From assembly GCA_035635555.1 (NCBI GenBank), contig DASQAT010000021.1:23975-87974 (forward strand): DNA of 64,000 bases. Reading direction: 5' to 3'. The notes under the pieces were generated by a model. That model did no database searches, was not told the DNA's origin, and saw only the letters and a program-made list of their open reading frames with translations. This DNA is from Candidatus Dormiibacterota bacterium. Its GTDB lineage: Bacteria > Acidobacteriota > Polarisedimenticolia > Gp22-AA2. Of this stretch, positions 14,453-28,997 are shown one piece after another; the first letter of the stretch is position 1, and the number at the start of each line of letters is the position of its first letter. Position numbers and translations under genes: made by a program.

Positions 14453-14745
14453 GCGTCCCCTCTGTGCAAGCCTTCTGCCAGATGGGAGTCCGGTGGGGAC
14501 CTTGCCGGAATTCACGACGGTGCAAGGACTTCGAGCGAACGATCGGGGAAGACGTGTCGCGGCCCCCAAAAATCGCGCTGTCGCGGCTGACGACAGCCCC
14601 ACCCGGCGTGGCGGTCGGGAAATGCCGCTAAACCCATGGACTCAAGGGCCTTCGAGCCTGTGCCCGTAAATCGTACAGTCCGTGTCCAGCCTCTGGTCAA
14701 ACGGACTGGCGGAACGAGTGCCCGGAGCCCGCTCGATCGTCGTTC

Positions 14746-15240
14746 CTAGTGGTCCACCACCTCGAGCGACACGCGCAGCCGGGCGTCTCCCTCCGCCGGG
14801 AGCAGGTCGACGGGCACGACGAGGTAGCCGGTGCCGTGAGCCTCCTTCTTTTCTTCGGCATCGATCCCTTCGATCGTCGTCGATTTCACCACCCGGTCCG
14901 CGGCGAGGACCTCGATCGTCACGTCGACCCGCTTGTCATGGCCCGGCTTCGTGAAGGTCGTGACCTTGAAGGTGACCTCGAGCTCCCCCTGGGCGTTCTT
15001 CTTCGCCCTGGAGCGGAACTCGATCACCGCCACGTCGTGGCAGTACATCTCCTTGAGGTCGGTGCTCGAGACCCAGGTGTTCCAGGAGCGCGGGCTCGCG
15101 GATGCGAAAGGGAGGGTCACGCCGCCGGGCGCGCACAGCGTCTCGCTCCGCGCCGGCGCCTGCTCCTGGGCCTGGAGCGGAAGCAGGAGCGCTATTCCGG
15201 AGAGAACGGCGATCGGGATCCAGCGGGACAGAGTCTTCAT
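14746..15240 (-). CDS. secreted hypothetical protein (164 aa)
   Basis: It has a signal peptide (MKTLSRWIPIAVLSGIALLLPLQAQEQ) and no recognisable family. It is on the same strand as the S8 peptidase and upstream of it. Confidence 0.55.
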   Translation of the reverse strand: MKTLSRWIPIAVLSGIALLLPLQAQEQAPARSETLCAPGGVTLPFASASPRSWNTWVSSTDLKEMYCHDVAVIEFRSRAKKNAQGELEVTFKVTTFTKPGHDKRVDVTIEVLAADRVVKSTTIEGIDAEEKKEAHGTGYLVVPVDLLPAEGDARLRVSLEVVDH

Positions 15241-15328
15241 GTGGGTCTCCTCGGGCGAGAGGGACAGGATCGGTCCGCATCATACGCGCATTGATCGGGA
15301 CGCTTCCAGAGGCTAGACTCCACGCACC

Positions 15329-16063
15329 ATGAGCGAGCCTGTCGGCGGTCGCGGGACCGGCAACGGCCGGGGCGTCACGATCGTCCTGTTCGACATCGAC
15401 GGAACCCTTCTGACGACTGCGGGCGCGGCGCGCGCGGCCTTCGCCCGCGGCCTCACCGAGGCCGCCGGCCGGCCGATCAACCCCGACGGTTATTCGTTCT
15501 CGGGGCGCACCGACCCCCAGATCGCCCGCGACATCCTGTCGAGTCACGGACTGAGCGAGGCGGAGCTGGGGACGGCGATCCCGGAGTCGATCCGGCTGTA
15601 TCTGAAGTATTTCGCCGGGGCCCCGAGCCTGGACAAGGCACGCCTCCTGCCCGGTGTGACGGATCTCCTGAATGCGCTCTCCACGCGCGGCGCCGCGCGC
15701 ACGGCCCTTCTGACCGGCAACGTCGAACCGGGGGCCCGCCTGAAGCTCGGACACTTCGGAATCGCCGGGTACTTCGATTTCACGCTGAGCTGCTTCGGAA
15801 GCGACGACGCCGACCGCTACCGGCTGCCGGCCCTGGCGCTCGAGCGGGCGCGCCGGCACGTCGGTCCGGAGGTGGCGGGAAACCAGCTCGTCGTCGTGGG
15901 CGACAGCGATCATGACGTGCTGTGCGGCAAATCGATCGGCGCCCGATCGGTGGCGGTCTGCACCGGCTGGACGCCGGCCCCTGTCCTGCGATCCCTGCGG
16001 CCGGACGCTCTGCTCGACGATCTGTCCGACACCGAGCGGGCGCTCGAGGCGATCCTGCGCTGA
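15329..16063 (+). CDS. HAD-superfamily hydrolase
   Basis: It carries HAD motif I (IVLFDIDGTLL). Downstream Rossmann-like motifs include VVVGDSDHDVLCG. Confidence 0.75.
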   Translation: MSEPVGGRGTGNGRGVTIVLFDIDGTLLTTAGAARAAFARGLTEAAGRPINPDGYSFSGRTDPQIARDILSSHGLSEAELGTAIPESIRLYLKYFAGAPSLDKARLLPGVTDLLNALSTRGAARTALLTGNVEPGARLKLGHFGIAGYFDFTLSCFGSDDADRYRLPALALERARRHVGPEVAGNQLVVVGDSDHDVLCGKSIGARSVAVCTGWTPAPVLRSLRPDALLDDLSDTERALEAILR

Positions 16064-16078
16064 CGCGGCCTCACGGAG

Positions 16079-17146
16079 GTGCGCACGACCCGCGGAACGG
16101 TCCGCTTCGAGAGGAAGACGATCGAGCTCGGCCTGCGGCGTCCCTGGACGATCGCGCGCGGGACGAGCGCCGTGAAGACGAACGTCCTGACCCGCCTGCG
16201 GTACGACGATATCGAAGGGCTGGGAGAAGCGGCTCCCAATGCGCGCTACGGCGAGAGCGCCGTCTCGGTCCTGAAGTCCCTCGGGACCCTGGCCCCGCTC
16301 ATCGGAGAAGACCCCTCGCGTCTGGACGAGATCCTCGATCGGGTCGACGCGGCGCTGCCCGGCGGGAACTCCGCGAAGGCCTCGATCGACATCGCGCTGC
16401 ACGACTGGGCCGGCCGGCGCGAGGGGGTCCCTCTGTGGCGCAGGTTCGGGGCCGACCCGGGCAAGGCGCCGCTCACGTCCATGTCGATCGGCCTGGACGA
16501 CCTCGAGGTCATGCAGGAGAAGGTCCGCGAGGCGGCCGGATTCCAGATCTTCAAGATCAAGGCCGGCCTGGCGGACGACCGGCGGATCATCGAGGGGATT
16601 CGCCGCGTGACCGGGCGGCCGTTGTACGTGGACGCGAACGAGGCGTGGACCGATCCGGACCGGGCCGTCGAGATGATCCGCTGGCTGGCGGGGATGGGTG
16701 TCGTCCTGGTGGAGCAGCCGCTGCCGGCGTCCGACCTCGAAGGGGCGAAGCGCGTCCGCGACCGGGTCGATCTGCCGATCCTTGCCGACGAGGCGGTCCT
16801 GACCGTGGACGACATCGCGCCGCTGGCGCAGGCGTACGACGGGATCAACGTGAAGGTGCAGAAGTCGGGTGGTCTGCGCATGGCGCGGCGCATGATCGCC
16901 GCCGCGCGTTCCCTCGGCATGAAGGTCATGCTCGGCTGCATGATCGAGACGTCGATCGGCATCACCGCCGCGGCGCACCTGTCGCCGCTCGTCGATTTCG
17001 CCGATCTCGACGGCAACCTGCTTCTCGCCGACGACCCGTTCCGGGGGGTGCTCGTGCAGGCCGGGCGGCTGGTCCTGACCGACCGACCGGGACTGGGGAT
17101 CGAGGGGGACTTCGACGCGCTCCCGGAAAATACTGGTGGACGATAA
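16079..17146 (+). CDS. dipeptide epimerase (L-Ala-D/L-Glu epimerase-like, enolase/MR-MLE superfamily)
   Basis: The translation is typical of MLE/dipeptide epimerases (QIFKIKAGLADDRRIIEGIRRVTGRPLYVDANEAWT...LVEQPLPASDL...KVQKSGGLRMARRMIAAA...GCMIETSIGITAAAHL). It has a GTG start. Confidence 0.8.
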   Translation: MRTTRGTVRFERKTIELGLRRPWTIARGTSAVKTNVLTRLRYDDIEGLGEAAPNARYGESAVSVLKSLGTLAPLIGEDPSRLDEILDRVDAALPGGNSAKASIDIALHDWAGRREGVPLWRRFGADPGKAPLTSMSIGLDDLEVMQEKVREAAGFQIFKIKAGLADDRRIIEGIRRVTGRPLYVDANEAWTDPDRAVEMIRWLAGMGVVLVEQPLPASDLEGAKRVRDRVDLPILADEAVLTVDDIAPLAQAYDGINVKVQKSGGLRMARRMIAAARSLGMKVMLGCMIETSIGITAAAHLSPLVDFADLDGNLLLADDPFRGVLVQAGRLVLTDRPGLGIEGDFDALPENTGGR

Positions 17147-17209
17147 ACCTTTTGCGCGGTAAGAAGCTCCCATAACCGAGACATCGGGTCCTGTCCAGGG
17201 AGGGACGCC

Positions 17210-19111
17210 ATGAACCGGAAGCGCTCCGTTTCGTCTTTCCCCGCACTGCTTCTCGTCCTCGCCTCCGGGGTCGGTCCGGCGGTCGCGGCCCCGCCGGGGG
17301 AGGTCACCGGCGACCGGATCGACCAGAACTCCCAGCTGACCTGGACCGCCGTCGCCGGGGCGGACGACTACAACGTCTACCGGGGGGAGGTCGCCTGGCT
17401 CCGGTCCCGGACCGGGGCGGAGTGCCACGGCGACGAGATCGCCGGCACGTCGTTCGCGACCCCCCTGCAACCCTCCGCCGGCCACGGATACTTCTATCTC
17501 GTCACCGCCGAGTCGAACCTGAACGGCGAGGGGACCCCGGGGAACGACACGAGCGGCACCCCCAGGCCTCTGCGCGGCTCCTGCGACCGGATCATGCGTC
17601 ACCACTACCTCGATCGCCTCGGGTACGGGTGGAACGAGTGGACGCGCGACCGGTTCACGGCGCTGGGCCGGCAGGGCTACATCGACGAGCAGCTGAATCC
17701 GGCGTCGATCGACGAGTCCACCAACACCGATCTCGTGACCCGCTCCTCGACCCTGGTGCCGCCGGACACGATCCAGGAGCTGCAGGGGCTCGACCTCGTC
17801 CGCGCGGTGTACGCCCGGCGCCAGCTCGAGCAGCAGGCCACCCTGTTCTGGGACAACCACTTCAACACCGACTACCACGAGAGCTTCGATTTCTTCTCCT
17901 TCTACCAGACGCTGTTTCCGGCCACGCGTCTCTACGAGTCGGCGAAATTCCATTTCGATCTCCAGAACTCGCTCCGGGGCCTGGCGTTCAACGGCACGTT
18001 CCGGGAGATCGTCGAGGCGAGCTCGATGAGCCCCGCCATGATCGTCTTCCTCGACACCGACAGCAACGTCAAGAGCGCCCCGAACGAGAACTTCGCCCGC
18101 GAGCTGATGGAGCTGCACACCCTGGGGGTGGACGGGGGCTACACGCAGCAGGACGTGGTGGCCCTCGCGCGCGTGTTCACCGGCTGGAACGTCTGCAAGA
18201 AGGCGGACGCCGACGCCGGCGATCCCCTGGCGGCCTGCATCCCGCGCAACACTTACGGCACCGCGACCGAGCCGCTGGGGCAGTTCGTACGCAACTTCCG
18301 CATCAACCAGCACGACACCGGCCAGAAGATCCTGTTCGCCGGCACGCCGTACCAGGCGGTCATCCCGGACACGTCGGCCAATCCGGCGAACGGGATCAAC
18401 GACGCCGACCTGGCGCTGGACGCCATCGTGGCGCACCCCTCCACGGCGCGCTTCATCGCCAAGGAGCTCTTGCAGCGGTTCGTGGACGAGGACCCGCCGT
18501 CGTCGATGATCGACACCGTCGTGGCCGCCTGGAACAACCCGGCCAACCCGCGCGGAGTCGGCGACCTGCGCGAGGTGCTGCGGGCCGTCCTGGCGCTGCA
18601 GGAGTTCAAGAGTCCCGACTTCGTGGGGCGGAAGATCAAGACGCCGTTCGAGCACGTCGCCTCGGCTCTGCGCACGGTGCGCGGCAAGACCGACGGAGCG
18701 ACCATCACGAGGCTGTACCTGACGCCGCTCCAGGAGGTGTTCCACGTGAACCCGGTCCCGACCGGCTACTCCGAGCTGGGCGGTGACTGGCTCGACACCA
18801 ACAATCTCCTGGTGAGGCAGAATTTCGGGCTGGACCTCGGCTCGCGCACCGGCACCGCCTTCGGCAACGATGTCATCGGGCTCCTCAACGCCAACGGCGT
18901 CGCGACCGCCCCGGCGCCCAACAACGCCCCGGCCATCGTCGACTTCCTCTCGGAGGCGATGTTCGGATCGGCGCTGACCGGCGCCGAGCGGCAGGCGGCG
19001 ATCGACTACCTGAACACCGATGACACGGGCGCCGTGAGTCCCTACAACGACGCGCGCATCCGCGAGACCGCCGGTTTTCTCCTCGGCTACCCCCAGTTCA
19101 TCGAGCAGTAG
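17210..19111 (+). CDS. DUF1800 family secreted protein with an extra N-terminal FN3-like Cys-bracketed module
   Basis: Signal peptide (ALLLVLASGVGPAVAAPPGE) with GGGAGGG 7 nt upstream. The DUF1800 core follows (FWDNHFNTDY...ARELMELHTLGVDGGYTQQDVVALARVFTGW). Residues about 40-128 carry the shared module (LTWTAVAGADDYNVYRG..C..GHGYFYLVTAESNLNGEG..C). Confidence 0.8.
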   Translation: MNRKRSVSSFPALLLVLASGVGPAVAAPPGEVTGDRIDQNSQLTWTAVAGADDYNVYRGEVAWLRSRTGAECHGDEIAGTSFATPLQPSAGHGYFYLVTAESNLNGEGTPGNDTSGTPRPLRGSCDRIMRHHYLDRLGYGWNEWTRDRFTALGRQGYIDEQLNPASIDESTNTDLVTRSSTLVPPDTIQELQGLDLVRAVYARRQLEQQATLFWDNHFNTDYHESFDFFSFYQTLFPATRLYESAKFHFDLQNSLRGLAFNGTFREIVEASSMSPAMIVFLDTDSNVKSAPNENFARELMELHTLGVDGGYTQQDVVALARVFTGWNVCKKADADAGDPLAACIPRNTYGTATEPLGQFVRNFRINQHDTGQKILFAGTPYQAVIPDTSANPANGINDADLALDAIVAHPSTARFIAKELLQRFVDEDPPSSMIDTVVAAWNNPANPRGVGDLREVLRAVLALQEFKSPDFVGRKIKTPFEHVASALRTVRGKTDGATITRLYLTPLQEVFHVNPVPTGYSELGGDWLDTNNLLVRQNFGLDLGSRTGTAFGNDVIGLLNANGVATAPAPNNAPAIVDFLSEAMFGSALTGAERQAAIDYLNTDDTGAVSPYNDARIRETAGFLLGYPQFIEQ

Positions 19112-19120
19112 GAGGAACGC

Positions 19121-20533
19121 ATGGACCCGACGAAGGATTGTGACTGCTCGCGCCGGTCGTTCCTGAAGGGGGCCGGGCTGACCCTCAGCGGATTCTCGAT
19201 CGCCTCGCTCTTCCCGGGACCGTGGATCCGCTTCGCCATGGGGGCCGGGCCGTTCAACAACAGACGGCTGCTGTTCATCTTCCTGCGCGGCGGCAACGAC
19301 GGACTGAACACGGTCATTCCCGCGGGCGATGTCGACTACAACACGCTCAACCGTCCGACGCTGTACATCCCCCCGACCGCGTCGCTCGACCTGAACGGCT
19401 TCGCCCACCTGCACCCGGCCCTCGCCGACCTGATGGAGATCTACAACGCCAACAACCTGGCCGTGGTGCACCGCGTGGGGTTCCCGAACAACAGCCGGTC
19501 GCATTTCGACGACCAGCGGACCTGGGAGAACGGCGACCCGGCCGATCCGAAATCCTACGAAGGCTGGCTGTACCGCTACATCGTTCAGAGCGCCATCGAC
19601 CAGGGGGTGCGTCTTCCGGCCATCACGGTGCAGGCGCTGCCGCCGGTGATCGTGAGGGGGGACGAAAAGTTCGTGAACGTGGCGAACCCCGACTCGTTCG
19701 ATTACATCTTCCCCGATCCGAAACGCTCCAAGTTCATGAACTCCTGGCGCAACGTGTACTCGAGCCTCACGGGGCTCGAGCCGTTCCGTCCGGCGCTCAC
19801 CGACACCAGCGTCAAGCTGATCGACACCCTGGACGAGTACCGCTCGTGGGACCAGCTGCACTGGGACCCGAAAGACCCGAACACGGGGTACTCTCTCTTC
19901 CCGGTCAGCGACGCGACCAATCCTCCCGATCCCGCGGGGCCGGGCGGCCTGAAGTTCGCGGCCACCAGCTACCCGTTCTTCAAATCGCTCAAGATTTGCG
20001 CCCTGGCGTTCCTGGAGAGCGACGCGGCCAACCAGAACGGCACGCGGGTCGCCGGCACCGAGCTGTCGAGCTTCGACACGCACAACAGCCAGGGCTCGAC
20101 CGCGGGCACGCAGGCGACGCTCCTGTCCTGGCTGGCCTACGGCATGCGGTCGCTGCACGTCGTCCTGTCGGGGGCGGCGGTCGATCCGCGCAACTACGCG
20201 TCGGTCTGGCAGGACACCGCGGTGGTGACGTTGTCGGAATTCGGACGCACGTCCAAGGAGAACGGCAGCGTCGGCACCGATCACGCTGCCGCCTCGTGCC
20301 TGTTCGTCGCCGGCGGCGACGTAACAGGAGGAGTCTACAACTGCGACGATTCGACCTGGCCGAAGGGAGTCATGTTCGGGGACTCGGGGCGGTACCTGCT
20401 GGTGAGAACCGACTACCGCGCCATCTTCTGGGAGATCCTGCGCGATCACATGGGGGCGTCGGCGTCGGCCGCCGACACGGTGTTCCCGGGATACTCGTCG
20501 CTTGGTCTCGCCGAGCTGAACCTGATCGCGTAG
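19121..20533 (+). CDS. DUF1501 family protein (sulfatase/alkaline-phosphatase-like fold) with twin-arginine signal
   Basis: Tat motif SRRSFLKGAG; GGAGGA RBS. Typical DUF1501 sequence (LLFIFLRGGNDGLNTVIP...SEFGRTSKENGSVGTDHAAASCLFVAGG). It follows DUF1800 after a 9-nt gap, which is the canonical DUF1800/DUF1501 pairing. Confidence 0.85.
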   Translation: MDPTKDCDCSRRSFLKGAGLTLSGFSIASLFPGPWIRFAMGAGPFNNRRLLFIFLRGGNDGLNTVIPAGDVDYNTLNRPTLYIPPTASLDLNGFAHLHPALADLMEIYNANNLAVVHRVGFPNNSRSHFDDQRTWENGDPADPKSYEGWLYRYIVQSAIDQGVRLPAITVQALPPVIVRGDEKFVNVANPDSFDYIFPDPKRSKFMNSWRNVYSSLTGLEPFRPALTDTSVKLIDTLDEYRSWDQLHWDPKDPNTGYSLFPVSDATNPPDPAGPGGLKFAATSYPFFKSLKICALAFLESDAANQNGTRVAGTELSSFDTHNSQGSTAGTQATLLSWLAYGMRSLHVVLSGAAVDPRNYASVWQDTAVVTLSEFGRTSKENGSVGTDHAAASCLFVAGGDVTGGVYNCDDSTWPKGVMFGDSGRYLLVRTDYRAIFWEILRDHMGASASAADTVFPGYSSLGLAELNLIA

Positions 20534-20540
20534 AGAGAGC

Positions 20541-23330
20541 ATGCGCAGAGCGGTGCCACAGCGCCTGGCCGCGCTCCTTGCGGCCGTGGCGCTCGTCCGG
20601 CTCGCGGGGCCGTCCGGAACGGCCGCCCCGTCGGCGGCCTCGATCCGCCTGAACGCCGCCCTCCTCGCCGGGGTCACGCCCACGCACGGCGCCCCGGATG
20701 CGCCGACCCTCCTGTCGATCTCCGGGGACGGACTCGCCCCGGGGTCGCGTGTCTCGCTGCTCGACGGCGGGCCGTTCCTCCTCGGGTCCTACATCATGCC
20801 GGAGGGTGCGCGCGCCGTGGAGGTGCACGGCGACCATGCCTGCGTCGCGTTCTACAGCCACGCCCGGAAGCTCGGCGGCATCGAGATCCTGGACCTGACC
20901 GACCCGACGACGCCCGCCCGCGTCGGCGCGTTCGAGACCGGGGACAGCGGCGTGGGGGTGGTGGTCGCGGGGTCGGTCGCCTACGTGCCGTTCCTCAACC
21001 CGTACACCTTCGAGGGAGGGCTGCACATCGTCGACATCGCGGCTCCGGACGATCCGCGCCGTCTGGGGACGTTCTACTCTCTCGTCGATCCGCAGGCCGT
21101 GGCCGTCCAGGGAACGCGCGCCTACGTGGCGGACGGTGTGGAGGGACTGAAGATCATCGACGTCACGGACCCCGCCTCGCCGCGCCTGCTCGGAGTCTAC
21201 GACACCGCCGGCACGGCGCGCGACGTGAAGGTCATCGGCACCCGCGCCTGCGTCGCCGACGGCGAGGGCGGTCTGCTCGTCCTGGACGTCGGCGATCCCT
21301 CCGCACCGGCCGTCGCCGGGACGTATGCGTTCCCTTCGAGCGCCGTCGTCTCGGTGGCCCTGGACGGGTCGCGTCTGTACGCCGCCGACACTCTCGCCGG
21401 TCTGCTCGTCTTCGACATCGCCGACGATGGCCGGCCGACGCTCCTCGGGACGACGCGGACATCGGACAGCGCCTCGGGGGTCGCGCTCGCGGGCCGCCTC
21501 GTGGTCGTCGCCGACGGTGTGTCCGGGCTGCAGATCGTGGACGCGTCCGACCCGGCCCGCCCGAGGGTCGTCGGGAGCCAGGGGCTGTATGGAAATTCCG
21601 GCTACTTCTTCGCGGTGGCGGTCGACGGGACGCGTGCCGTGGTCGCCGACATCATCAACGGCGTGCAGGTGATCGATCTGCGGCATCCGGCGCAGCCGGC
21701 ATCCGCCGGGGCGCTCGAAGGGCCGCCGGTGATCGCTGCGGGGGTCCCGGGGGGTGTCACGGGGGTCGCGGTCGACGCCGCCTCGTCCCTGGCCGCCCTG
21801 GCGGACGGCGCGGGCGGGCTTGTCCTCGTCGACGTCCGGAACGCGGCGTCGCCGTCGGTGCTCGGCTCGCTTTTGACGGGCGGCCCCGCGAACGGGATAG
21901 CACTCGCGGACGGCACGGCCTACATCGCCGCGGGCGGCGCCGGGCTGTCGATCGTCGACGTGCGCTTCCCCGGGGCGCCGGCGCTTCTCGGGACGCTCGA
22001 CACGCCGGGGGACGCCCAGGCGGTGGCCGTCGCCGACGGGAGGGCCTACGTCGCGGACGGGAGTCGCGGACTCCAGGTCGTCGACGTGTCCGACGGCAGG
22101 CACCCGGCGCTCCTCGGAGCGTATGACACGCCCGGAAGCGCGCGGGGCGTGTTCGTCGCGGACTATGCCTACGTCGCCGACGATTTCATGGGGATGGAGA
22201 TCCTCGACATAAGCGCCGCCGCCCCGCGCCTGGTCGGCCGGTACGACACGCCCGGCCGGGCGGTCGGGGTGGCGGTCGGCGGCGGCCGCGCCTACGTCGC
22301 CGATCTCAACCGCGGTCTTCAGATCCTGGACGTCCGCGACAGGGAGGCGCCGGTCCTGGTCCAGAATCTCAGCACGCCTGGTGCTGCGCAGGGGGTCGTG
22401 CTGGCGGGCGACCGGCTTTACGTAGCCGACGGCTTCAGCGGTCTTCTGGAGATCGACGTCGGCGACCCGGACCGGCCGATCCTCGCCGGCGCCTACGATA
22501 CGCCGGGGATAGCGACCGCCGCGGCGACCGCGTCCGGACTGGTGTTCGTGGCCGACGGGAGTCACGGTCTGAGGATCATCAGGCCGAACCCCGCGATCCC
22601 CGGGCCGCAGGCCAAGCCGGACTCGGGCCTGGCCGTCATGCTGCCGGCCGGCTTCACACCCGGCCCGTACGACTTGCAGGTGACCGGCCCGGACGGGGCG
22701 ATCGCTCTCCTCCCGGACGGATTCCTGGTCTGCAGGCACCTGGATCTCGCCGCGCGTCTCGTGTCCGTGGACTCGAACGACGCGCCGGGGCGCGCGGCGG
22801 AGGGAGCCCCCGGGCTCTATCGCCTGGTGCTGAGCGGCGACGACGATCTGTTCTCGCCCGGGGCCGCGAGGCGCGCGCGCCTCCTCCTGCCCGCGCTCCC
22901 GGCCCGGGTCGAGGTGCGGGCGGCGACCGGCCCGTCGATCATCGAGCTGCGCATCGGTCCCTCGCCCGGCGAGGCGACGGTGCTCGTCTCGGGGCCCGAT
23001 CCCGCCGCGGCGGCGCTGCAATGGGAGACGATCCGCGCGGCGGGTGGGGTCGACCTCCCCCCCCTCGACGAAACGACCTACGGCGATCTGCGGCTGTCCG
23101 TCCTGGCCGGCGCAGGCGGGCCGGCCGGCCGGGCGGCGGGAAGAGCGCCGCGTGAACCGGGACCGCCCGTGCGGTATCGTTATGTGTTCGAGGCGGGGCG
23201 CCTGGTCGGGGCGGGCGCCTGGGGCCCCGGCGCCGCGCTCCTGTTCGACGTCTCGGCCGGCGATCCGGACGGCTGCGGCGCGGAGACTCGCGTGACCTTC
23301 GACGAACCCCGGGGAGGAGGGACGCCATGA
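20541..23330 (+). CDS. secreted LVIVD-repeat beta-propeller protein
   Basis: There are more than 15 repeats of the form AYVADG..GL.IVDV.DP..P.L.G.YDT.G.A.GV.V.G, the LVIVD-repeat signature, plus an N-terminal signal peptide. The gap from the preceding gene is 7 nt. Confidence 0.75.
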   Translation: MRRAVPQRLAALLAAVALVRLAGPSGTAAPSAASIRLNAALLAGVTPTHGAPDAPTLLSISGDGLAPGSRVSLLDGGPFLLGSYIMPEGARAVEVHGDHACVAFYSHARKLGGIEILDLTDPTTPARVGAFETGDSGVGVVVAGSVAYVPFLNPYTFEGGLHIVDIAAPDDPRRLGTFYSLVDPQAVAVQGTRAYVADGVEGLKIIDVTDPASPRLLGVYDTAGTARDVKVIGTRACVADGEGGLLVLDVGDPSAPAVAGTYAFPSSAVVSVALDGSRLYAADTLAGLLVFDIADDGRPTLLGTTRTSDSASGVALAGRLVVVADGVSGLQIVDASDPARPRVVGSQGLYGNSGYFFAVAVDGTRAVVADIINGVQVIDLRHPAQPASAGALEGPPVIAAGVPGGVTGVAVDAASSLAALADGAGGLVLVDVRNAASPSVLGSLLTGGPANGIALADGTAYIAAGGAGLSIVDVRFPGAPALLGTLDTPGDAQAVAVADGRAYVADGSRGLQVVDVSDGRHPALLGAYDTPGSARGVFVADYAYVADDFMGMEILDISAAAPRLVGRYDTPGRAVGVAVGGGRAYVADLNRGLQILDVRDREAPVLVQNLSTPGAAQGVVLAGDRLYVADGFSGLLEIDVGDPDRPILAGAYDTPGIATAAATASGLVFVADGSHGLRIIRPNPAIPGPQAKPDSGLAVMLPAGFTPGPYDLQVTGPDGAIALLPDGFLVCRHLDLAARLVSVDSNDAPGRAAEGAPGLYRLVLSGDDDLFSPGAARRARLLLPALPARVEVRAATGPSIIELRIGPSPGEATVLVSGPDPAAAALQWETIRAAGGVDLPPLDETTYGDLRLSVLAGAGGPAGRAAGRAPREPGPPVRYRYVFEAGRLVGAGAWGPGAALLFDVSAGDPDGCGAETRVTFDEPRGGGTP

Positions 23331-24973
23331 GAGTAGAACGTTCGGTGCCTCCGGTCATCCGGCCGGCCGCCGCCTGCTTCGCCGCGGCCTCCCTGCTGCT
23401 GGCGGCGCCGCGGTCGGAAGCGGCCTTCGACTGCACGGGTGTGACACCGGCCGCCAACACTGTGCTTGTGGCCGTGCCGGTCGCGACCGGCCTCACGGCG
23501 CGGCCGCACCTGGTGACTTCCCCCCCGGGCGATACGGCGCGTCTGTTCATCGTGGAGCAGGGCGGATTCATCCGCATCAAGAGGCGCGGTGATCCGTCCG
23601 GCACGCTCTCGACCTTCCTGGACATCAGCGCGAAGGTGCAGGCCTCCACGATTCACAACGAGATGGGTCTTCTGGGCCTGGCGTTCGATCCCGACTACGG
23701 CACGACGGGCTCCTTCTACGTGAACTACACCGAGGGGCCGCTGAACGGACCGTGGTTCAGCGTGGTGGCGCGCTATCAGGTGTCGGGCGATCCGAATGTC
23801 GCCGATCCCAACAGCGAGCAGCGGCTCCTCCGCTATTCGCAGCCGCAGGACAATCACAACGGCGGTCAGCTCCAGTTCGGTCCCGACGGATACCTCTACA
23901 TCTCCACCGGGGACGGCGGGGGGGCCGGCGACCAGCACGGCACCTGCGGCAACGGCCAGAGCCGGGCGAGCCTTCTCGGCAAGCTCCTGCGTCTCGACGT
24001 CCGCGGTGTCGCACCGTCCAGCCTGCCGCCCGACTGCGGAGGGACGACGGCGGTCTACAGAATCCCGTCCGACAATCCGTTCGCCGCGGGTCTCGGCGGC
24101 GACTGCGACGAGATCTGGGCCTACGGGCTGCGCAACCCCTGGCGCTCCGCCTTCGACGAAGCGACGGGGGACCTGTACATCGCCGACGTCGGCCAGAACT
24201 GCTGGGAGGAGATCGACTATGTCCCGGGCCCCGGCGCCGGCGGGGAGAACTTCGGCTGGCGGATGATGGAGGCGAACCACTGCTACAACAACAGCACTCC
24301 GAACACCTGCGACCCGACGCCCGCCTCCTGCGCCGGCGTGCCGGCCTGCAAGGACCCCTCCTTCACCGACCCGATCGCCGAGTACGGGCACGGCAGCGGC
24401 TGCTCGATCACCGGCGGGTTCGTGTACCGCGGCTGCCTGATGCCGAACCTGGCGGGTGCCTACTTCTACGGCGATTACTGCTCGGGGTTCATCCATTCGT
24501 TGCGCGTCGTCGGCGGTGTCGCGACCGATCCGCGCGACTGGACGGGGCAGATCGACCCCGGCTCGACCCTGAGGAACAGTCTGACCGGCTTCGGCGTCGA
24601 TCGACAGGGGGAGCCGTATGTCGTCGACCGCAAGGGCACGATTCTCAAGATCATGCCGCCGTTGTCCGACCTCGAAGTCGCGGGCCGCAACACCCTGCAG
24701 CCGCTCCTGCTCCTGGCCGCGGCCTGGACCTGGGAGGACCTCGCGTTCGACACCATGGCCCCGGTGGTCTCGTACCGCGTCTATCGCGGCGTCCCCGGCG
24801 GATCGTTCGCCTGCGTCTTCACCGCGCCCACGCCGCAGTGGACGGGAGGGGACCCGGCGTCCCCCGCCGTCGGCCATGTGTTCGCCTACGTGGTCACGGC
24901 GGTCGGCCCCTACGGCGAAGAGACGAAGAGCGGCGATCCGCCCGTGAACCTCCTCCCCGGTTCCTGCCCGTGA
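23327..24973 (+). CDS. PQQ-dependent soluble sugar dehydrogenase (glucose/sorbosone dehydrogenase, GSDH family) with C-terminal FN3-like module
   Basis: GSDH hallmarks are present (MGLLGLAFDPDYGTTGSFYVNYTE, HNGGQLQFGPDGYLYISTGDGG, WAYGLRNPWRSAFDEATGDLYIADVGQNCWEEIDYV) along with a signal peptide. Its start overlaps the LVIVD stop (ATGA). The C-terminal 85 aa carry the shared module (YRVYRG..C..GHVFAYVVTAVGPYGEE..C). Confidence 0.8.
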   Translation: MRVERSVPPVIRPAAACFAAASLLLAAPRSEAAFDCTGVTPAANTVLVAVPVATGLTARPHLVTSPPGDTARLFIVEQGGFIRIKRRGDPSGTLSTFLDISAKVQASTIHNEMGLLGLAFDPDYGTTGSFYVNYTEGPLNGPWFSVVARYQVSGDPNVADPNSEQRLLRYSQPQDNHNGGQLQFGPDGYLYISTGDGGGAGDQHGTCGNGQSRASLLGKLLRLDVRGVAPSSLPPDCGGTTAVYRIPSDNPFAAGLGGDCDEIWAYGLRNPWRSAFDEATGDLYIADVGQNCWEEIDYVPGPGAGGENFGWRMMEANHCYNNSTPNTCDPTPASCAGVPACKDPSFTDPIAEYGHGSGCSITGGFVYRGCLMPNLAGAYFYGDYCSGFIHSLRVVGGVATDPRDWTGQIDPGSTLRNSLTGFGVDRQGEPYVVDRKGTILKIMPPLSDLEVAGRNTLQPLLLLAAAWTWEDLAFDTMAPVVSYRVYRGVPGGSFACVFTAPTPQWTGGDPASPAVGHVFAYVVTAVGPYGEETKSGDPPVNLLPGSCP

Positions 24974-25929
24974 GACGGTCCCTGGCCGGGGCCCTGCTCG
25001 TTCTGGCCGCCTGTCCCTGTCCGGTCGATGCCGCCTGGACGGCGCGGCCTCAGCACCCCGCAGCCTCGACACCCGAGCCGAAACGCGCCGAATTTCGCCG
25101 CCGGATCGAAGAGAGGCTCGCCCGCCTCGTCTCCGGGCTGCAGGGGGCCTCGGGATACGTCATCCGCGATCTCGCCGGCGGTGAAGCGTTCGAGAAGGAC
25201 GCCGGCGCCGTGTTCCCCGCCGCCTCGACCATCAAGCTGCCGATCTTCCTCGATCTTCTCAAGCGATCGGAGGAAGGAAGGCTCGACCTGGCGCGCCCGG
25301 TGCCGATCGATCCGAAGACGCGCGTGGAAGGGGGCGGCGTGCTGGAGAAGTGGTCGGAGCCGTACCCGGTCCTGTCGGCCGATCATCTCGCCGTCCTGAT
25401 GATGGACTTCTCCGACAACTATGCCACGAACGTCCTCATCGATCTCGTCGGCATGGACACTGTGCAAAGACGTCTCGACGCCTGGGGGATGAAGGAGACG
25501 CTCCTGCGACGCAGGATGATGGACCTCGAGGCGGCGCGGGCCGGGCGCGAGAACGTCACGACACCGCGCGAGATGGCCGGGCTGCTCGAGCGGTTGTACC
25601 GGGGCGAGATCCTGAACGCCGGGAACACCCGCAAGGCGATCGAGATCATGAAGCGGAACGAAAAGACTCCGATCAAGAGAGGGCTGCCGCCGGGTGTCCC
25701 GGCGGCCGACAAGGACGGGGATCTGGACGGGCTGCGCTGCGACTCGGGGATCGTCTTCGTCGCGGGCCGCTCCGCGGACGCCGCGCGGCCGTTCGTCATT
25801 TCGGTGATGACCGCCTACCTTCAGGATGACAGGGCGGGCGAGGAGTTCATCGGCGAGGTCGCGCGGGCGGCGTGCGATTATTTCGAGACCCTGGCGCGCT
25901 CGACCGAGCACGGGCGGAAGATGGATTAG
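24970..25929 (+). CDS. class A beta-lactamase-related serine hydrolase (lipoprotein), non-canonical KDG in place of KTG
   Basis: The GTG start overlaps the GSDH stop (GTGA). The product has a lipobox-like signal (LLVLAACPC). Class A motifs include SxxK (AASTIKLP) and SDN (FSDNYATN), and an omega-loop-like segment (RRRMMDLEAARAGRENVTTPREM). KDG (AADKDGDLDG) replaces KTG. The product is 319 aa. Confidence 0.75.
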   Translation: MRRSLAGALLVLAACPCPVDAAWTARPQHPAASTPEPKRAEFRRRIEERLARLVSGLQGASGYVIRDLAGGEAFEKDAGAVFPAASTIKLPIFLDLLKRSEEGRLDLARPVPIDPKTRVEGGGVLEKWSEPYPVLSADHLAVLMMDFSDNYATNVLIDLVGMDTVQRRLDAWGMKETLLRRRMMDLEAARAGRENVTTPREMAGLLERLYRGEILNAGNTRKAIEIMKRNEKTPIKRGLPPGVPAADKDGDLDGLRCDSGIVFVAGRSADAARPFVISVMTAYLQDDRAGEEFIGEVARAACDYFETLARSTEHGRKMD

Positions 25930-26825
25930 CGGTCGGCCCCCATCATCCCCGGCTTCAGGTAGGGGATCGGATCGACCGGGCGGCCGTCGCGTCGCACTTC
26001 GAAGTGCAGGTGTGTGCCGCGGGCGTTCCCGGTGGCGCCGACCTCTGCGATCGTCTGGCCCTGCTCGACTTCGTCCCCTTCGCGCACCAGGAGCCGGCTG
26101 GCGTGGGCGTACAGCGTGGTCACGCCGTTGCCGTGATCGATCACCACCGTCTTGCCGTACTTCCCCTCGCTGCCCGAGTGCACCACGATCCCCGGGGCGA
26201 CGGCGCGGACGTCCTCGCCCCGGACACCGTCGATGTCGATGCCGTCGTGGTGATGGTGCCGTCCGCGCTGGCCGAAGGCCCCCGTGATCAGGCCATCGAG
26301 AGGCCAGGCGATGCTCATCTCGGAAGGGGCCGAAGCGTCCTCCGACATCGGCTTCTGCCGCGGGACGGGGGCCGCCACGGGGGGAGCGGCCGGCGCCGCG
26401 CCCGGTTGCGCCGGCGCCGGTATGTAGATTTCGGTGCCGGCGCGGATGGTTGTCGGGTCGCGGATGCCGTTGGCGCGCAGAATCGTCTGGAGCGGCACCT
26501 CGTACGCCCGCGACAGCGAGTACAACGTCATGCCGGGTTGCAGGCTGACACGCACGCCGGCCGCGGTCGAAGCACCGCCCGCCTCGTCGCAATCCTCCGA
26601 GCACCCCTCCGGCTCGGCCGGTGGCAGGGAGACGCGGGGGCGGTCGAGACGCACCGCGGGCTCGGCCCCGCCCAGTCTCGAGGGGTGTTCCCACTCGGCG
26701 ACCGGCGGAGGCTCCGCAGAGGTCACCGCGCGCGACGCGGCGCGCCCCCCGCAACAGGGCAGCAGGAGCGCTCCCGCCGCCGCAAGCAGAGACAAGGGAA
26801 ACCGGCTCCCGATGCGTCCGTGCAT
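25926..26825 (-). CDS. LysM-domain M23 family metallo-endopeptidase (murein hydrolase-like), lipoprotein
   Basis: The product is 299 aa. It has a signal with LLPCCGG, a LysM domain (YSLSRAYEVPLQTILRANGIRDPTTIRAGTEIYIP), and the M23 HxxxD (HHHHDGIDID) and HxH (GTHLHFEV) motifs. Its stop overlaps the convergent beta-lactamase-like gene's stop. Confidence 0.8.
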   Translation of the reverse strand: MHGRIGSRFPLSLLAAAGALLLPCCGGRAASRAVTSAEPPPVAEWEHPSRLGGAEPAVRLDRPRVSLPPAEPEGCSEDCDEAGGASTAAGVRVSLQPGMTLYSLSRAYEVPLQTILRANGIRDPTTIRAGTEIYIPAPAQPGAAPAAPPVAAPVPRQKPMSEDASAPSEMSIAWPLDGLITGAFGQRGRHHHHDGIDIDGVRGEDVRAVAPGIVVHSGSEGKYGKTVVIDHGNGVTTLYAHASRLLVREGDEVEQGQTIAEVGATGNARGTHLHFEVRRDGRPVDPIPYLKPGMMGADR

Positions 26826-27020
26826 GAGGCAATCCTCCCTATTAATATGATGGAGGGTGATCAGCCCGTCCACCCCTGCAACGGCCCGAATTTCCGGGCC
26901 TTCGAGAGGAAGCCCACGTGTAACCCGCGCCCCCGGCGGCTTCCGCCGATGGCGATTTTGTAATGGTCCGGCGTCGGCACGGTTGATCGACCCCTCGACC
27001 GGATGGTACAGTCCGCCTCC

Positions 27021-28928
27021 ATGCCCCGGACGGAACTCTTGCTCCGGCTTTCCGCAGCCGCCCTGCTCGTGGCCTCGACGGCCTGCCGCGCCGAGCGCCC
27101 CGCGCACCTGACCGGCGCTGGTGCGGCGGACACGGCGAACGCCGGCCCGGCCGCGCCGACGGGCGCCCTCGTGCAGCAGCCCTACTTCGCCAACATGACC
27201 GTCGAGAGGAACACCGCGGTGCCGATGCGCGACGGGGTCGTCCTGCGCGCCGACATCTACCGCCCGGCGGCGCCCGGTAGGTTCCCGACGCTGGTCTATC
27301 GAACGCCCTACGGCAAGGACGCTCTCGTGGAGTCGGGGTACGAGCCGACCATCGTGAGAGCGGCGCGGGCCGGGTACGCGGTCGTCGTGCAGGACGTGCG
27401 CGGACGGTTCCGTTCTGACGGCGAGTTCCGCCCGTACCAGCAGGAGGGCCACGACGGTTACGACACGATAGAGTGGGCGGCTGCGCAGGGATGGAGCAAC
27501 GGCCGCGTCGGCACGTTCGGGCTGTCTTATCCGGGGGCCGTGCAGTGGCTCGCGGCCATGGAGGCCCCGCCGCACCTCGTGTCGATTTTCCCGGCGATGA
27601 CGTTCGACACGGGCCGGCACTTCTTTTTCTTCGGCGGCGGGTTCAACCATGACTGGATGCGCTGGATCCTCCTGAACATCGCCCCCGACGTCAGGCAGCG
27701 CAAGGGGCTGCGCGGTGCCGTGACGGAGAAGGAGGCTCAGGCGGAGTGGGACCGCCTCAAGTGGCAGTGGGAGAACTACCTGCCCCTGCGCGAGTTTCCC
27801 GTCCTGAAGGAGGTCGCCCCCTGGTACTACGAGTGGCTCGAACACGCGGACGACGGGCCCTACTGGGACTTCGCCGACGTGACCCGGGCCCACCCGAAGA
27901 TCACGACGCCGGCGCTCAACTTCTCCGCCTGGTACGACAGCAACTACGGCCCGCTCGGGGCGATCGCCAATTACAACGGCATGCGGGAGAAGGGCGCGAC
28001 CGATCTGGCCCGGCGCGGCCAGAGGCTCATCCTGGGCCCCTGGGACCACGGGGATCCGACGGAATACGAGACCAAGGTGGGGGAGATCGATTTCGGGCCG
28101 AACATGACGTTCGACTACTACTCTCTGGTGATCAAGTGGCACGACCGCTGGCTGAAGGAGATCAGGAACGGTGTGGACGAAGGACCGCCGGTGCGCATCT
28201 TCGTGATGGGGGACAACGTCTGGCGCGCCGAGAACGAATGGCCGCTCAAGCGCACGCTGTACGTGCCCTACTACCTGCACAGCGGCGGACGCGCCAACAC
28301 CGCTGCGGGGGACGGTTCGCTGTCGACCGCCGAACCGGCCGCCGCGGCCGCAGGAGCCGAGGAGCCGCCCGATCGGTACGTCTACGATCCCCATCGACCC
28401 GTCGTCGTGGAAAACTTCGAGAAGATGGGACCGTACGACCATTCGAAGATGCAGTCGCGCCAGGACATGCTCGTCTACACCACCGGGCCGCTCGCCGAAG
28501 ACATCGAGGTGACCGGTCCGATCACCGTGCACCTGTGGGCGGCGTCGAGCGCCGTCGACACCGATTTCGCCGTGATGCTCTGCGACGTCTATCCCGACGG
28601 CCGCGCCTACAACCTCGCGCCGAACGAGGCCGGCTTCCTGCGCGCCCGCTACCGCAAGTCGGAGTCGGCGCCCGAGCTCCTGACGCCGAACGAGCCGACC
28701 GAGTTCGTCATCGGCCAGATGGTGACCAGCAACGTCTTCAAGAAGGGGCACCGCATCCGGCTGCAAGTGACCAGCAGCCGTTTTCCCTCGTTCGATCGCA
28801 ATCCGAACACCGGCGACCCGTTCGGCGAGTCGAGCCGCGTGATCGTCGCCCGCCAGACGATCCTGCACGACGCGATCCACCCCTCGCGGGTCGTCCTGCC
28901 CCTCATCCCGCGCGGCCCCGGACAGTGA
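27021..28928 (+). CDS. CocE/NonD family hydrolase (S15 Xaa-Pro dipeptidyl-peptidase-like), secreted
   Basis: It has a signal peptide (RTELLLRLSAAALLVASTACRA) and the nucleophile motif GLSYPG. Family sequence is typical (FPTLVYRTPYGKD...VVVQDVRGRFRSDGEF...). The minus-strand 1022-aa ORF over this region is a shadow, except for its 3' 900 nt, which is the M23 gene. Confidence 0.85.
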   Translation: MPRTELLLRLSAAALLVASTACRAERPAHLTGAGAADTANAGPAAPTGALVQQPYFANMTVERNTAVPMRDGVVLRADIYRPAAPGRFPTLVYRTPYGKDALVESGYEPTIVRAARAGYAVVVQDVRGRFRSDGEFRPYQQEGHDGYDTIEWAAAQGWSNGRVGTFGLSYPGAVQWLAAMEAPPHLVSIFPAMTFDTGRHFFFFGGGFNHDWMRWILLNIAPDVRQRKGLRGAVTEKEAQAEWDRLKWQWENYLPLREFPVLKEVAPWYYEWLEHADDGPYWDFADVTRAHPKITTPALNFSAWYDSNYGPLGAIANYNGMREKGATDLARRGQRLILGPWDHGDPTEYETKVGEIDFGPNMTFDYYSLVIKWHDRWLKEIRNGVDEGPPVRIFVMGDNVWRAENEWPLKRTLYVPYYLHSGGRANTAAGDGSLSTAEPAAAAAGAEEPPDRYVYDPHRPVVVENFEKMGPYDHSKMQSRQDMLVYTTGPLAEDIEVTGPITVHLWAASSAVDTDFAVMLCDVYPDGRAYNLAPNEAGFLRARYRKSESAPELLTPNEPTEFVIGQMVTSNVFKKGHRIRLQVTSSRFPSFDRNPNTGDPFGESSRVIVARQTILHDAIHPSRVVLPLIPRGPGQ

Positions 28929-28997
28929 GCTGAATCGGATTGACAACCGGCCCGGATGGGGGTATGTGAAAGGCTGAACGCCGCCGCACCCCATGCC

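Follow-up and report, generated by a model that had tools for sequence, protein, structure and literature searches.

A DUF1800 gene, a DUF1501 gene, an LVIVD gene and a GSDH gene (g1 to g4 in Table 1) form a conserved, tightly spaced four-gene unit in one clade of Candidatus Polarisedimenticolia (Acidobacteriota). In the window, by which we mean the whole stretch of 64,000 nucleotides analysed here, this cassette is followed by a gene for a protein with the class-A beta-lactamase fold (g5). With a probability of about 60%, the locus is a mosaic of the four-gene cassette and a separate module consisting of HAD, epimerase and beta-lactamase-like genes, an M23/LysM gene and an S15 gene, and g5 is a passenger. 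A preliminary description of this DNA had proposed all five genes as one conserved unit. This is correct for g1 to g4, which are syntenic in all orthologous loci, but g5 accompanies them in one genomic context only and has repeatedly been lost there.

Table 1. Features of the locus (positions in the window)
Feature	Position	Strand	Matches and remarks
HAD-family hydrolase gene	15329..16063	+	Pfam Hydrolase/HAD_2; opens the same-strand run; member of the flanking module, not of the cassette
MR/MLE enolase-superfamily gene, dipeptide-epimerase-like	16079..17146	+	Pfam MR_MLE_N/C
g1, cassette gene 1: Sec-type DUF1800 protein, N-terminal Fn3 and all-alpha body	17210..19111	+	
Fn3 module of g1	about 17288-17584	+	N-terminal part of g1
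g2, cassette gene 2: DUF1501 protein with a predicted Tat signal, candidate AP-superfamily metallohydrolase	19121..20533	+	
g3, cassette gene 3: Sec-type LVIVD-repeat protein, extra N- and C-terminal regions	20541..23330	+	
g4, cassette gene 4: Sec-type GSDH-family six-bladed propeller	23327..24973	+	Pfam GSDH
C-terminal Fn3-like module of g4	about 24689-24970	+	
g5, passenger: class-A beta-lactamase-fold serine hydrolase, PBP-A-like	24970..25929	+	Pfam Beta-lactamase2
LysM and M23 peptidase gene, convergent, flanking module	25926..26825	-	Translation; the identical gene of locus L001 matches Pfam LysM and Peptidase_M23
S15 (CocE/NonD family) hydrolase gene, flanking neighbourhood	27003..28928	+	Pfam Peptidase_S15, PepX_C

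The five plus-strand open reading frames were recovered at the coordinates given earlier, with gaps of 9 nt (g1/g2) and 7 nt (g2/g3) and 4-nt overlaps of ATGA (g3/g4) and GTGA (g4/g5). The five domain calls of the preliminary description are also borne out by HMM search, with 299.3 bits for DUF1800 (PF08811), 67.4 for DUF1501 (PF07394), 266.7 for LVIVD (PF08309), 109 for GSDH and 201 for Beta-lactamase2. GC3 of g1 to g4 is 0.87-0.93, as is typical for real genes in this window of 70% GC; g5, the open frame of which is fused with a longer one, was left out of this computation. A Shine-Dalgarno sequence, GGAGG, precedes g1, g2 and g4, while g5 starts with GTG and has no Shine-Dalgarno sequence.

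The cluster does not start at g1, as had been assumed. The same-strand run begins two genes upstream with the HAD gene, 15 nt before the MR/MLE gene, which in turn lies 63 nt before g1. It ends at the convergent LysM/M23 gene, which overlaps the stop codon of g5. Gaps across the run are between -4 and 63 nt, and neither promoter-like or credible terminator-like elements (consensus scans) nor Rfam elements were seen within it. Judging from the shared strand, the spacing and these scans, the run from HAD to g5 is probably co-transcribed.

Wherever an orthologous locus offers enough DNA, g1 to g4 are colinear (L003, L005, L006, L008-L010, L012-L014, L083, L090, L098, and L102; L011 is cut and stands outside this list). 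In these relatives the g1/g2 gap is 2-10 nt, and the g2/g3 gap is 2-38 nt in seven of the eight measurable loci, L008 having about 156 nt. The 4-nt overlap of g3 and g4 is kept in seven further loci. Among the g4 orthologues with at least 63% identity and upstream DNA, nine have LVIVD upstream (L089-L093, L098-L100, and L102), preceded by DUF1501/DUF1800 wherever the contig reaches; L111 is the only one without it. At least four unrelated genomic settings contain the cassette, which stays colinear down to about 69% DUF1501 identity. In one context it lies between HAD/MLE and M23/S15. Another has KAS, flavin reductase, transglutaminase and HD genes opposite amidohydrolase, 3HCDH and ALDH genes. 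A third has GT4 and MoCo genes on one side and ADH on the other. The DUF1501 proteins linked to the cassette constitute a single clade in the neighbor-joining (NJ) tree.

The DUF1800-DUF1501 pair itself is much more widespread. DUF1800 adjoins DUF1501 in essentially all of 80 genome loci fetched around DUF1501 relatives, and several paralogous pairs can be present in one genome, such as L026 and L036 in Mor1 or L028 and L038 in bin529. The pair was said to have no assigned function, and none was found in the literature searched. It has been noted as a conserved operon whose function is unknown, for instance beside genes for bacterial chitin synthases (Goncalves et al. 2016, PMC5122149). There, as here, DUF1800 is followed by DUF1501 at about 9 nt, and DUF1501 has a predicted twin-arginine signal. 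The present locus differs in the extension by LVIVD and GSDH-like genes, in the N-terminal Fn3 of DUF1800, and in having neither a chitin synthase nor a sugar epimerase nearby. According to Kamneva et al. (2012, PMC3542564), Planctomycetes and Verrucomicrobia have modules in which DUF1501 stands with PSCyt1/PSCyt2/PSD1 and a WD40 propeller protein. Shared with these are a DUF1501 with a predicted Tat signal, a large exported partner, beta-propellers, a size of up to four genes, variable composition, many paralogous copies per genome, and an unknown function. Here, however, the partner is DUF1800, which has no cytochrome c motif, instead of PSCyt/PSD1, the propellers are of the LVIVD and GSDH types instead of WD40, and the lineage is Acidobacteriota. 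Cupredoxin-like genes following DUF1800/DUF1501 pairs in other phyla, together with the cytochrome-motif partners in PVC bacteria, are at least as compatible with a redox role as with hydrolysis.

All five proteins are predicted to be exported, in line with the signals described before: Sec-type N-termini for g1, g3 and g4, the twin-arginine-like SRRSFLK for g2, and a lipobox-like L-A-A-C for g5. The DUF1800 match of g1 (cut-off 26.1) covers model positions 1-417 of 419 at residues 132-630. For this body no solved structural relative and no structural lead were obtained. The Fn3 modules of g1 and g4 are related to each other; in the six-frame translation of the whole window, an HMM of the g1 Fn3 matches only g1 and the C-terminus of g4.

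The DUF1501 match of g2 (gathering score 27) is confined to model positions 239-331, and the PF07394 annotation is also precomputed on g2 homologues in the protein database. SRRSFLK occupies residues 10-16, ahead of a hydrophobic stretch. R11, R12, F14 and L15 are conserved in at least 90% of homologues, and the Pfam TAT_signal match is 16.4, under the cut-off of 22.7. Invariant in the family are D60, S127-H128, D319/H321, D387-H388 and H443, which look like an AP/NPP-like metal site with a Ser nucleophile. g2 bears the marks of the alkaline phosphatase (AP) superfamily: an alpha/beta core, Asp/His residues of the metal-binding kind and a putative nucleophile after the second core strand. The predicted model of g2 has a pLDDT of 58, with residues 121-245 below 50, and the assignment of the active site thus depends on sequence position and on the general features of the AP superfamily. 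From the two-metal members (NPP/ENPP phosphodiesterases, PafA, and PhoK), g2 is distinguished by its obligate DUF1800 neighbor and its predicted Tat signal, and no similarity to any solved structure was detectable. The [CS]xPxR formylglycine motif of type I sulfatases is absent anywhere in g2, and for this reason a sulfated substrate, suggested earlier, is not favoured.

The LVIVD match of g3 consists of eight stretches. By motif count, the repeats number about 14, recur every 42 aa or so and extend from residue 114 to 690; inspection by eye and by regular expression gave 12 motif copies at 41-52 aa spacing and two more. g3 has no sequence relative in the PDB and is probably a double beta-propeller. 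g4 scores 47.7 bits against TIGR03606, far from its cut-off of 434.55. As in the soluble PQQ sugar dehydrogenases (sGDH; Asd/YliI, PDB 2g8s), g4 is a Pfam GSDH protein that retains the HxGG His (H177-N-G-G), RNP (R269-N-P) and NFGW. It differs from them by its C-terminal Fn3-like module and by the replacement of HGPR with VGQN, where EHGPRGGDEIN of Asd aligns to ADVGQNCWEEID of g4. In sequence it is closer to the propeller of Hedgehog-interacting protein, the top PDB match with 96 bits, than to the bacterial sugar dehydrogenases (about 43 bits). Because this closest solved relative is non-enzymatic and the Asd-type HGPR is replaced, PQQ binding by g4 is uncertain.

It can be speculated, though tentatively, that the cassette encodes an extracytoplasmic enzyme assembly around DUF1501, in which DUF1800 and both propellers are partners. 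DUF1501 would act jointly with its obligate partner DUF1800 as an AP-superfamily metallohydrolase. Given a two-metal site and a Ser nucleophile, it would be phospho-mono/diesterase-like and not a formylglycine sulfatase. The propellers of g3 and g4 could bind a carbohydrate-like portion of the substrate, with g4 perhaps oxidising it. In a fuller version, DUF1800 would activate or target a DUF1501 esterase of the AP superfamily, and this enzyme would share one complex substrate (a phosphorylated glycan or a soil organic phosphoester, for instance) with a quinoprotein-like dehydrogenase and a double propeller; such a four-protein system, not described before, is unlikely.

A different role is conceivable, with rather low probability: an extracytoplasmic redox or electron-transfer module, in which the GSDH-like quinoprotein oxidises and DUF1800/DUF1501 handle a cofactor or electrons. 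In five Planctomycetota loci the gene 3-55 nt downstream of DUF1501 encodes a cupredoxin (PF00127), and TPR and FG-GAP propeller genes come next; in L019 a weak cupredoxin match comes straight after DUF1501. Kamneva et al. (2012, PMC3542564) described DUF1501 together with PSCyt proteins carrying cytochrome motifs and with WD40 propellers, and suggested electron transport. Tat export suits a protein with a cofactor or metal loaded before export, and g4 still has the catalytic His of HxGG and the RNP motif. However, g1 and g2 contain no heme (CxxCH), Fe-S or flavin motif, their invariant residues resemble an AP-type metal site, the cassette has no gene for an electron acceptor (cytochrome or cupredoxin), and the PQQ-binding HGPR motif is not conserved.

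The cassette could also be two independent two-gene units travelling together, DUF1800-DUF1501 and a pair of LVIVD-GSDH propellers of a surface or adhesion type, with no common pathway. DUF1800-DUF1501 stands alone or with quite different neighbors in most loci, and GSDH+Fn3 paralogues are found as solo genes (L104, L105, L107, and L111). The g3/g4 overlap is the tightest junction, compared with the wide g2-g3 gap of L008, and modules of the LVIVD, Fn3 and IPT-like kinds are characteristic of proteins at the cell surface (PMC2447325). The colinearity and closeness of the four genes across their contexts and the single clade of their DUF1501 proteins speak against such independence. LVIVD genes also adjoin more distant pairs (L025, L026, L037, and L041), and g1 and g4 have a related Fn3 module in common. 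Two independent pairs are improbable. In the comparison of gene neighborhoods that had been proposed, DUF1800/DUF1501 are linked to LVIVD and GSDH, whereas the beta-lactamase-like gene is separable.

The protein encoded by g5 has an invariant SxxK and SDN. Its best solved relative is PBP-A (Tll2115 of Thermosynechococcus, PDB 2j7v; E 2e-28), a PBP or DD-peptidase with the class-A beta-lactamase fold. The two share SxxK and SDN and lack Glu at the general-base position of beta-lactamases, with the reservation that two deposited PBP-A sequences differ right there, Leu versus Glu; the 166-equivalent of g5 is Met. Unlike PBP-A, g5 has K-D-G in place of KTG, the middle position being D, E, N or P across its family, and in most lineages its gene is coupled translationally to a dipeptide-epimerase-like gene. 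A true class A beta-lactamase was considered and rejected for g5, which has neither Glu166 nor KTG and reaches 118 bits against NCBIfam bla_class_A (NF033103; cut-off 200). The lipobox-like Cys is seen only in the window and the closest relative and is not family-wide.

The distribution of g5 separates it from the cassette, contrary to its proposed membership, and its GTG start and missing Shine-Dalgarno sequence in the window point the same way. It is present in none of the 80 loci around DUF1501 relatives. About 25 codons of it are left in L117, a relative with 91% identity in g4, and in L003, L005, L092, L093 and L094 the M23 gene comes straight after g4. In six lineages (L084, L085/86, L088, L169, L170, and L171) the beta-lactamase-like gene directly follows MR/MLE with no cassette between them, overlapping it by 4-7 nt or starting 20 nt behind it. 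It follows the cassette, with 63-98% identity, in metagenomic L083, L089, L090, L095, L097, L103 and L122. The overlap with g4 is restricted to the closest relatives; in the others 20-80 nt separate the two genes, and g5 has a separate start codon.

The usual partner of g5, the MR/MLE gene, has PDB entry 3iji as its top match (275 bits), followed by L-Ala-D/L-Glu epimerases. Its NCBIfam matches, DgcA (214 bits) and L-Ala-D/L-Glu epimerase (159 bits), are both under cut-off. HAD is upstream of MR/MLE also in L083, L084, L085, L088, L169 and L170. On the other side, S15, which matches TIGR00976 with 443 bits, adjoins M23 also in L003, L083, L084, L085, L169 and L171, and the NCBIfam matches of the LysM/M23 gene are DipM/ActS/NlpD-like, every one under cut-off. 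The second module is composed of HAD, the dipeptide-epimerase-like MR/MLE and the serine hydrolase, and then convergent LysM/M23 and S15. It is a deeply conserved neighborhood, plausibly a unit for the turnover of cell wall or D-amino-acid peptides.

In the mosaic, the cassette would have been inserted between the epimerase gene and its usual partner, which would make g5 a passenger. In the NJ tree of g5, cassette-less L085 and L088 are basal, in favour of g5 being separable; the tree carries no support values, however, and places cassette-less L084 inside the cassette-bearing group. One insertion followed by one loss is likely, if short of proof. Given its persistence in several lineages, g5 may have a secondary functional tie to the cassette. 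A single periplasmic pathway of all five genes, perhaps with the flanking cell-wall enzymes, acting on a sugar- or peptide-containing polymer (muropeptide or modified glycan) with the beta-lactamase-like protein integral to it, would suit the co-directional genes, the g4/g5 overlap, the recurrence of the five-gene layout in the seven metagenomic loci and the peptidoglycan-type neighbors (dipeptide-epimerase-like, LysM/M23, S15), but is largely contradicted by synteny and very improbable, as g5 is missing from every cassette locus outside a single context, was lost more than once within it, is coupled to MR/MLE where the cassette is absent, and overlaps g4 only in the closest relatives.

Closely packed genes with overlapping stop and start codons can be misleading: g5 overlaps g4 yet descends with the epimerase unit. 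The cassette is new as a variant of known but uncharacterised DUF1501 modules, and its function is proposed here from sequence. DUF1800/DUF1501 pairs are very common: protein searches gave thousands of homologues, and genomes of Acidobacteriota, Planctomycetota and Verrucomicrobiota contain several paralogous pairs each. In one clade the pair is firmly tied to two particular accessory proteins, which narrows the search for its substrate. If the four-protein enzyme system were true, it would offer a first functional entry point to the DUF1800/DUF1501 family, which is very large and spans several phyla.

Five consecutive plus-strand genes of the window (g1–g5) encode a DUF1800 protein, a DUF1501 protein, an LVIVD propeller, a GSDH-like propeller and a beta-lactamase-like protein. 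The preliminary description had read them as one operon of secreted proteins acting on a periplasmic polymer. Its ORF coordinates and junctions are reproduced here: g1/g2 and g2/g3 are separated by 9 nt and 7 nt, g3/g4 overlap by ATGA and g4/g5 by GTGA. The Pfam search supports each of its five domain calls (see the table). The third-position GC is 0.87–0.93 in g1–g4, in a window of 70% GC, and these four thus carry the signature of real genes; the frame of g5 merges into a longer one and is unscored. GGAGG-type ribosome-binding sites are seen for g1, g2 and g4, and none for g5. The genes and their spacing are real, but the run does not start at g1. It starts farther upstream, at a HAD gene followed by an MR/MLE (dipeptide-epimerase-like) gene, with gaps of 15 nt (HAD to MR/MLE) and 63 nt (MR/MLE to g1), and it ends where the convergent LysM/M23 gene overlaps the g5 stop. 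Scans of 14–28 kb revealed no promoter-like, convincing terminator-like or Rfam elements inside the run, and no sigma-54 −24/−12 element is visible by eye in the 63-nt spacer 5′ of g1. The N-termini of the encoded proteins look exported, as had been proposed. That of g2 contains S-R-R-S-F-L-K, whose RR, F and L are conserved among homologues, though its Pfam TAT_signal score is below the cut-off. An identical 15-nt start context, GGAGGGACGCCATGA, is present at g1 (17195–17213) and g4 (23312–23330). It may represent optimal Shine-Dalgarno spacing or a trace of shared history.

Positions of the features discussed, in the window and in compared loci from genomes and metagenomes (L-numbers)
Sequence	Feature	Position	Strand	Remarks
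Window	M2 peptidase	1–1887	−	528 bits; cut by window edge
Window	MopE-like protein	5764–8199		copper-binding motif
Window	HAD hydrolase	15329–16063	+	first gene of same-strand run
Window	MR/MLE enolase-superfamily gene	16079–17146	+	between HAD and g1
Window	g1, DUF1800	17210–19111	+	633 aa; Pfam DUF1800, 299 bits
Window	g2, DUF1501	19121–20533	+	470 aa; Pfam DUF1501, 67 bits
Window	g3, LVIVD	20541–23330	+	929 aa; Pfam LVIVD, 267 bits
Window	g4, GSDH-like	23327–24973	+	548 aa; Pfam GSDH, 109 bits
Window	g5, beta-lactamase fold	24970–25929	+	319 aa; GTG start; Pfam Beta-lactamase2, 201 bits
Window	LysM/M23 peptidase	25926–26825	convergent	overlaps g5 stop; S15 (CocE/NonD) hydrolase next
Window	ORF	28956–31640	+	894 aa
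Window	ORF	31654–33114	+	486 aa
Window	MttB-family methyltransferase homologue	51178–52662		611 bits
Window	Kelch-repeat propeller	52889–56551	−	1220 aa
L010	three GSDH-family genes round one cassette	5699–17311		
L013	tandem DUF1800-DUF1501 pair	4565–11395		
L014	tandem DUF1800-DUF1501 pair	4488–11395		
L018	SBBP/GDSL-lipase protein	6113–9391		
L019	protein without Pfam match	3–2498		831 aa
L026	FG-GAP propeller	18892–20751		
L033	PEP_mutase-family gene	11432–12235		PF13714, 242 bits
L077	cupredoxin locus	11374–15092		
L117	g5 remnant	488–592		first ~25 codons

Four of the genes, g1–g4, are conserved together as a cassette for exported proteins. On the DUF1501 side, 80 genome loci around DUF1501 relatives were surveyed by tblastn with all window proteins from 12.6–33 kb. 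DUF1800 lies immediately 5′ of DUF1501 in essentially all 80, across Acidobacteriota, Planctomycetota and Verrucomicrobiota. Every locus with a DUF1501 at least 69% identical and a long enough contig (L003, L005, L006, L008, L009, L010, L012, L013 and L014; L011 is cut) has g1–g4 colinear. The g1–g2 gap in these is 2–10 nt, the g2–g3 gap is 2–38 nt in seven of the eight measurable loci, and the 4-nt g3/g4 overlap is kept in seven further loci. More distant acidobacterial pairs sometimes have an adjoining LVIVD gene without a GSDH gene (L025, L026, L037 and L041). On the g4 side, metagenomes were scanned with the GSDH-like protein, and LVIVD was found upstream of nine orthologues at least 63% identical and with upstream DNA (L089–L093, L098–L100 and L102), and also DUF1501 and DUF1800 where the contig suffices (L090, L098 and L102). 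Solo g4 relatives are a paralogue (L111, 71%) and the relatives of 40–55% identity. The synteny thus confirms the four-gene unit from both ends.

The flanks of the cassette are several unrelated gene sets. The annotated flanks contain unrelated housekeeping genes with no common theme; integrase genes, transposase genes and repeats, as signs of a mobile element, were not seen in them. In the NJ tree, the DUF1501 proteins linked to the cassette form one clade, which fits vertical descent plus rearrangement. In L013 and L014 a tandem-duplicated DUF1800-DUF1501 pair lies directly 5′ of the cassette LVIVD gene, and both copies group within the cassette clade. Among the three GSDH-family genes of L010, one (745 aa) is upstream and two are in tandem 3′ of LVIVD. 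Six contigs (L006, L008, L011, L012, L013 and L040), all from one 'SMAG' MAG series, are labeled Patescibacteria, Dongiaceae, Cryosericum, Verrucomicrobiia or Binatia, with cassettes 69–78% identical to that of the window. The labels probably reflect mistakes in binning or naming, because the contigs resemble Polarisedimenticolia contigs.

The fifth gene has a different history. None of the 80 genome loci surveyed for DUF1501 relatives contains it. Its orthologues in the same class are 54–96% identical, and L083 has the same layout as the window. In six lineages (L084, L085/L086, L088, L169, L170 and L171), none of which has any of g1–g4, g5 lies directly 3′ of MR/MLE with an overlap of 4–7 nt or a gap of 20 nt. 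HAD is upstream in five of the six, and M23 and S15 are downstream in all save the truncated L088. In the window-type context, g5 follows g4 in L089, L090, L095, L097, L103 and L122, and is missing in L003, L005 and L092–L094. Only the closest relatives show the 4-nt g4/g5 overlap; L095, L103 and L122 have a gap of 20–80 nt, with a separate ATG for g5. In L117, where g4 is 91% identical, a g5 remnant consisting of signal-peptide codons only is left between g4 and M23. It is a deletion scar, and direct evidence of recent deletion. The g5 NJ tree, which has no support values, places two cassette-less lineages, L085 and L088, at the base of the cassette-bearing group and a third, L084, inside it.

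These contexts settle the question of g5 membership. Among relatives, synteny holds for g1–g4; g5 is variably present and is elsewhere coupled to MR/MLE, and a conserved five-gene operon that includes it is not supported. The cassette now sits within a second, separable unit of the epimerase-PBP-like type. On the simplest reading, a HAD-MLE-bla/M23/S15 neighborhood was there first and the cassette landed within it, separating the epimerase-like gene from its partner. That all five genes stand together is then an accident of this insertion.

The closest solved relative of g5 is the PBP-A protein Tll2115. The g5 family keeps SxxK and SDN, has nothing equivalent to Glu166, and shows K-x-G instead of KTG. 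With its score also below the NCBIfam class A cut-off, g5 is rejected as a true beta-lactamase or resistance gene. It is better named a serine hydrolase or a PBP-like protein. MR/MLE is closest to PDB 3iji (275 bits), listed as 'muconate cycloisomerase' and which we take to be a Bacteroides dipeptide epimerase, and to L-Ala-D/L-Glu epimerases. The combination of a dipeptide epimerase, a PBP-A-like hydrolase, LysM/M23 and S15 would fit a unit that turns over cell-wall or D-amino-acid peptides.

As for the cassette proteins, the PDB sequence search found no relative of g1, none for the g2 profile and no solved relative for g3, and NCBIfam has no family for g1 or g2. The AF2 model of g1 is confident (pLDDT 88), with an N-terminal beta-sandwich (residues ~27–122) followed by an all-alpha body. 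Many charged residues in the body are invariant, such as N292-E-N, R297-E, E301 and H368-D, which would resemble a binding or catalytic site more than a scaffold. DUF1800 proteins of the cassette clade also share an invariant Glu-Gln at the extreme C-terminus (E632 and Q633 in alignment A2; nt 19103–19111); a free C-terminus conserved in this way might serve for docking or as a ligand. The invariant residues of g2 are D60, S127-H128, D319/H321, D387-H388 and H443, presumably the positions where the two-metal ligands and nucleophile of alkaline-phosphatase-superfamily/phosphodiesterase-type (AP/NPP) enzymes are expected. The ~14 LVIVD repeats of g3 probably form two seven-bladed propellers. By sequence, Hedgehog-interacting protein is nearer to g4 than the bacterial sugar dehydrogenases are. 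The HxGG, RNP and NFGW motifs of g4 are kept but HGPR is not, so its PQQ dependence is putative.

An HMM of the Fn3 module of g1 matches the C-terminal ~90 residues of g4, reproducibly across g4 orthologues (E 1e-4 to 5e-3). In the six-frame translation of the whole window, g1 and g4 are its sole matches. The module also ends other secreted proteins near DUF1800/DUF1501 pairs, including propellers: the L019 protein (E 5e-17), the SBBP/GDSL-lipase protein of L018 and the FG-GAP propeller of L026.

It can be speculated, at a probability of about one in three, that the DUF1501 protein is a metal-dependent AP/NPP-type esterase that depends on DUF1800, and that both propellers would bind or modify its carbohydrate-like substrate, one of them possibly as a quinoprotein dehydrogenase. 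The Fn3 modules common to g1 and g4 would place these two proteins in the same setting. A redox role is the main rival reading. Five Planctomycetota loci (L045, L064, L077, L080 and L082) have a cupredoxin gene 3–55 nt after DUF1501, and then TPR and FG-GAP/ASPIC propeller genes; L019 has a weak cupredoxin match at the same position. In the PVC modules, the partners of DUF1501 are cytochrome-motif proteins and a WD40 propeller (Kamneva et al., PMC3542564). The cassette fits this recurring pattern of DUF1501, large partner, propeller and redox-type protein. A sulfatase activity of g2 is not favored, because the formylglycine motif (C/SxPxR) is found nowhere in it. The interpretation originally proposed is supported in part only. 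Separately, in one acidobacterial locus (L033) a PEP_mutase-family gene lies 9 nt 3′ of DUF1501, a single case that could hint at phosphonate or organic-acid chemistry.

The same genes are also found on a 46-kb metagenome contig, and among named relatives the nearest are MAGs of Candidatus Polarisedimenticolia (gp22), in the Acidobacteriota. The remaining window is ordinary-looking chromosome, with the M2 peptidase (angiotensin-converting-enzyme-like), a TRAP transporter, a sigma-54 two-component system, RND efflux and others. The MopE-like protein and the MttB homologue are also encoded here. The Kelch-repeat protein, a further large propeller of secreted type, has thrombospondin type 3 repeats and lacks the g1/g4 Fn3 module. 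The two ORFs after S15 have good coding statistics and no Pfam or NCBIfam match. In L171, HD and GATase genes directly follow S15, and in the window these two lie at 42–46 kb. For this reason ~29–42 kb, with the two ORFs, a sigma-54 regulator and kinase and the RND efflux genes, looks like another insertion.

A conserved DUF1800-DUF1501 operon, of unknown function, is on record (PMC5122149), as are DUF1501 modules of variable composition with propellers in PVC bacteria (PMC3542564). No functional study came up in literature searches for DUF1800, DUF1501 and LVIVD; a mention of LVIVD in Tenderiales is a guess about attachment only, and in PMC5615132 the searched term occurs solely outside the main text. 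No report of the DUF1800-DUF1501-LVIVD-GSDH cassette was found. It is a variant of a known, uncharacterized module type. The analysis gives no new mechanism yet, and it cautions that operons read from spacing alone can mislead. The cassette offers a clean entry point, open to testing, into a large unknown family.
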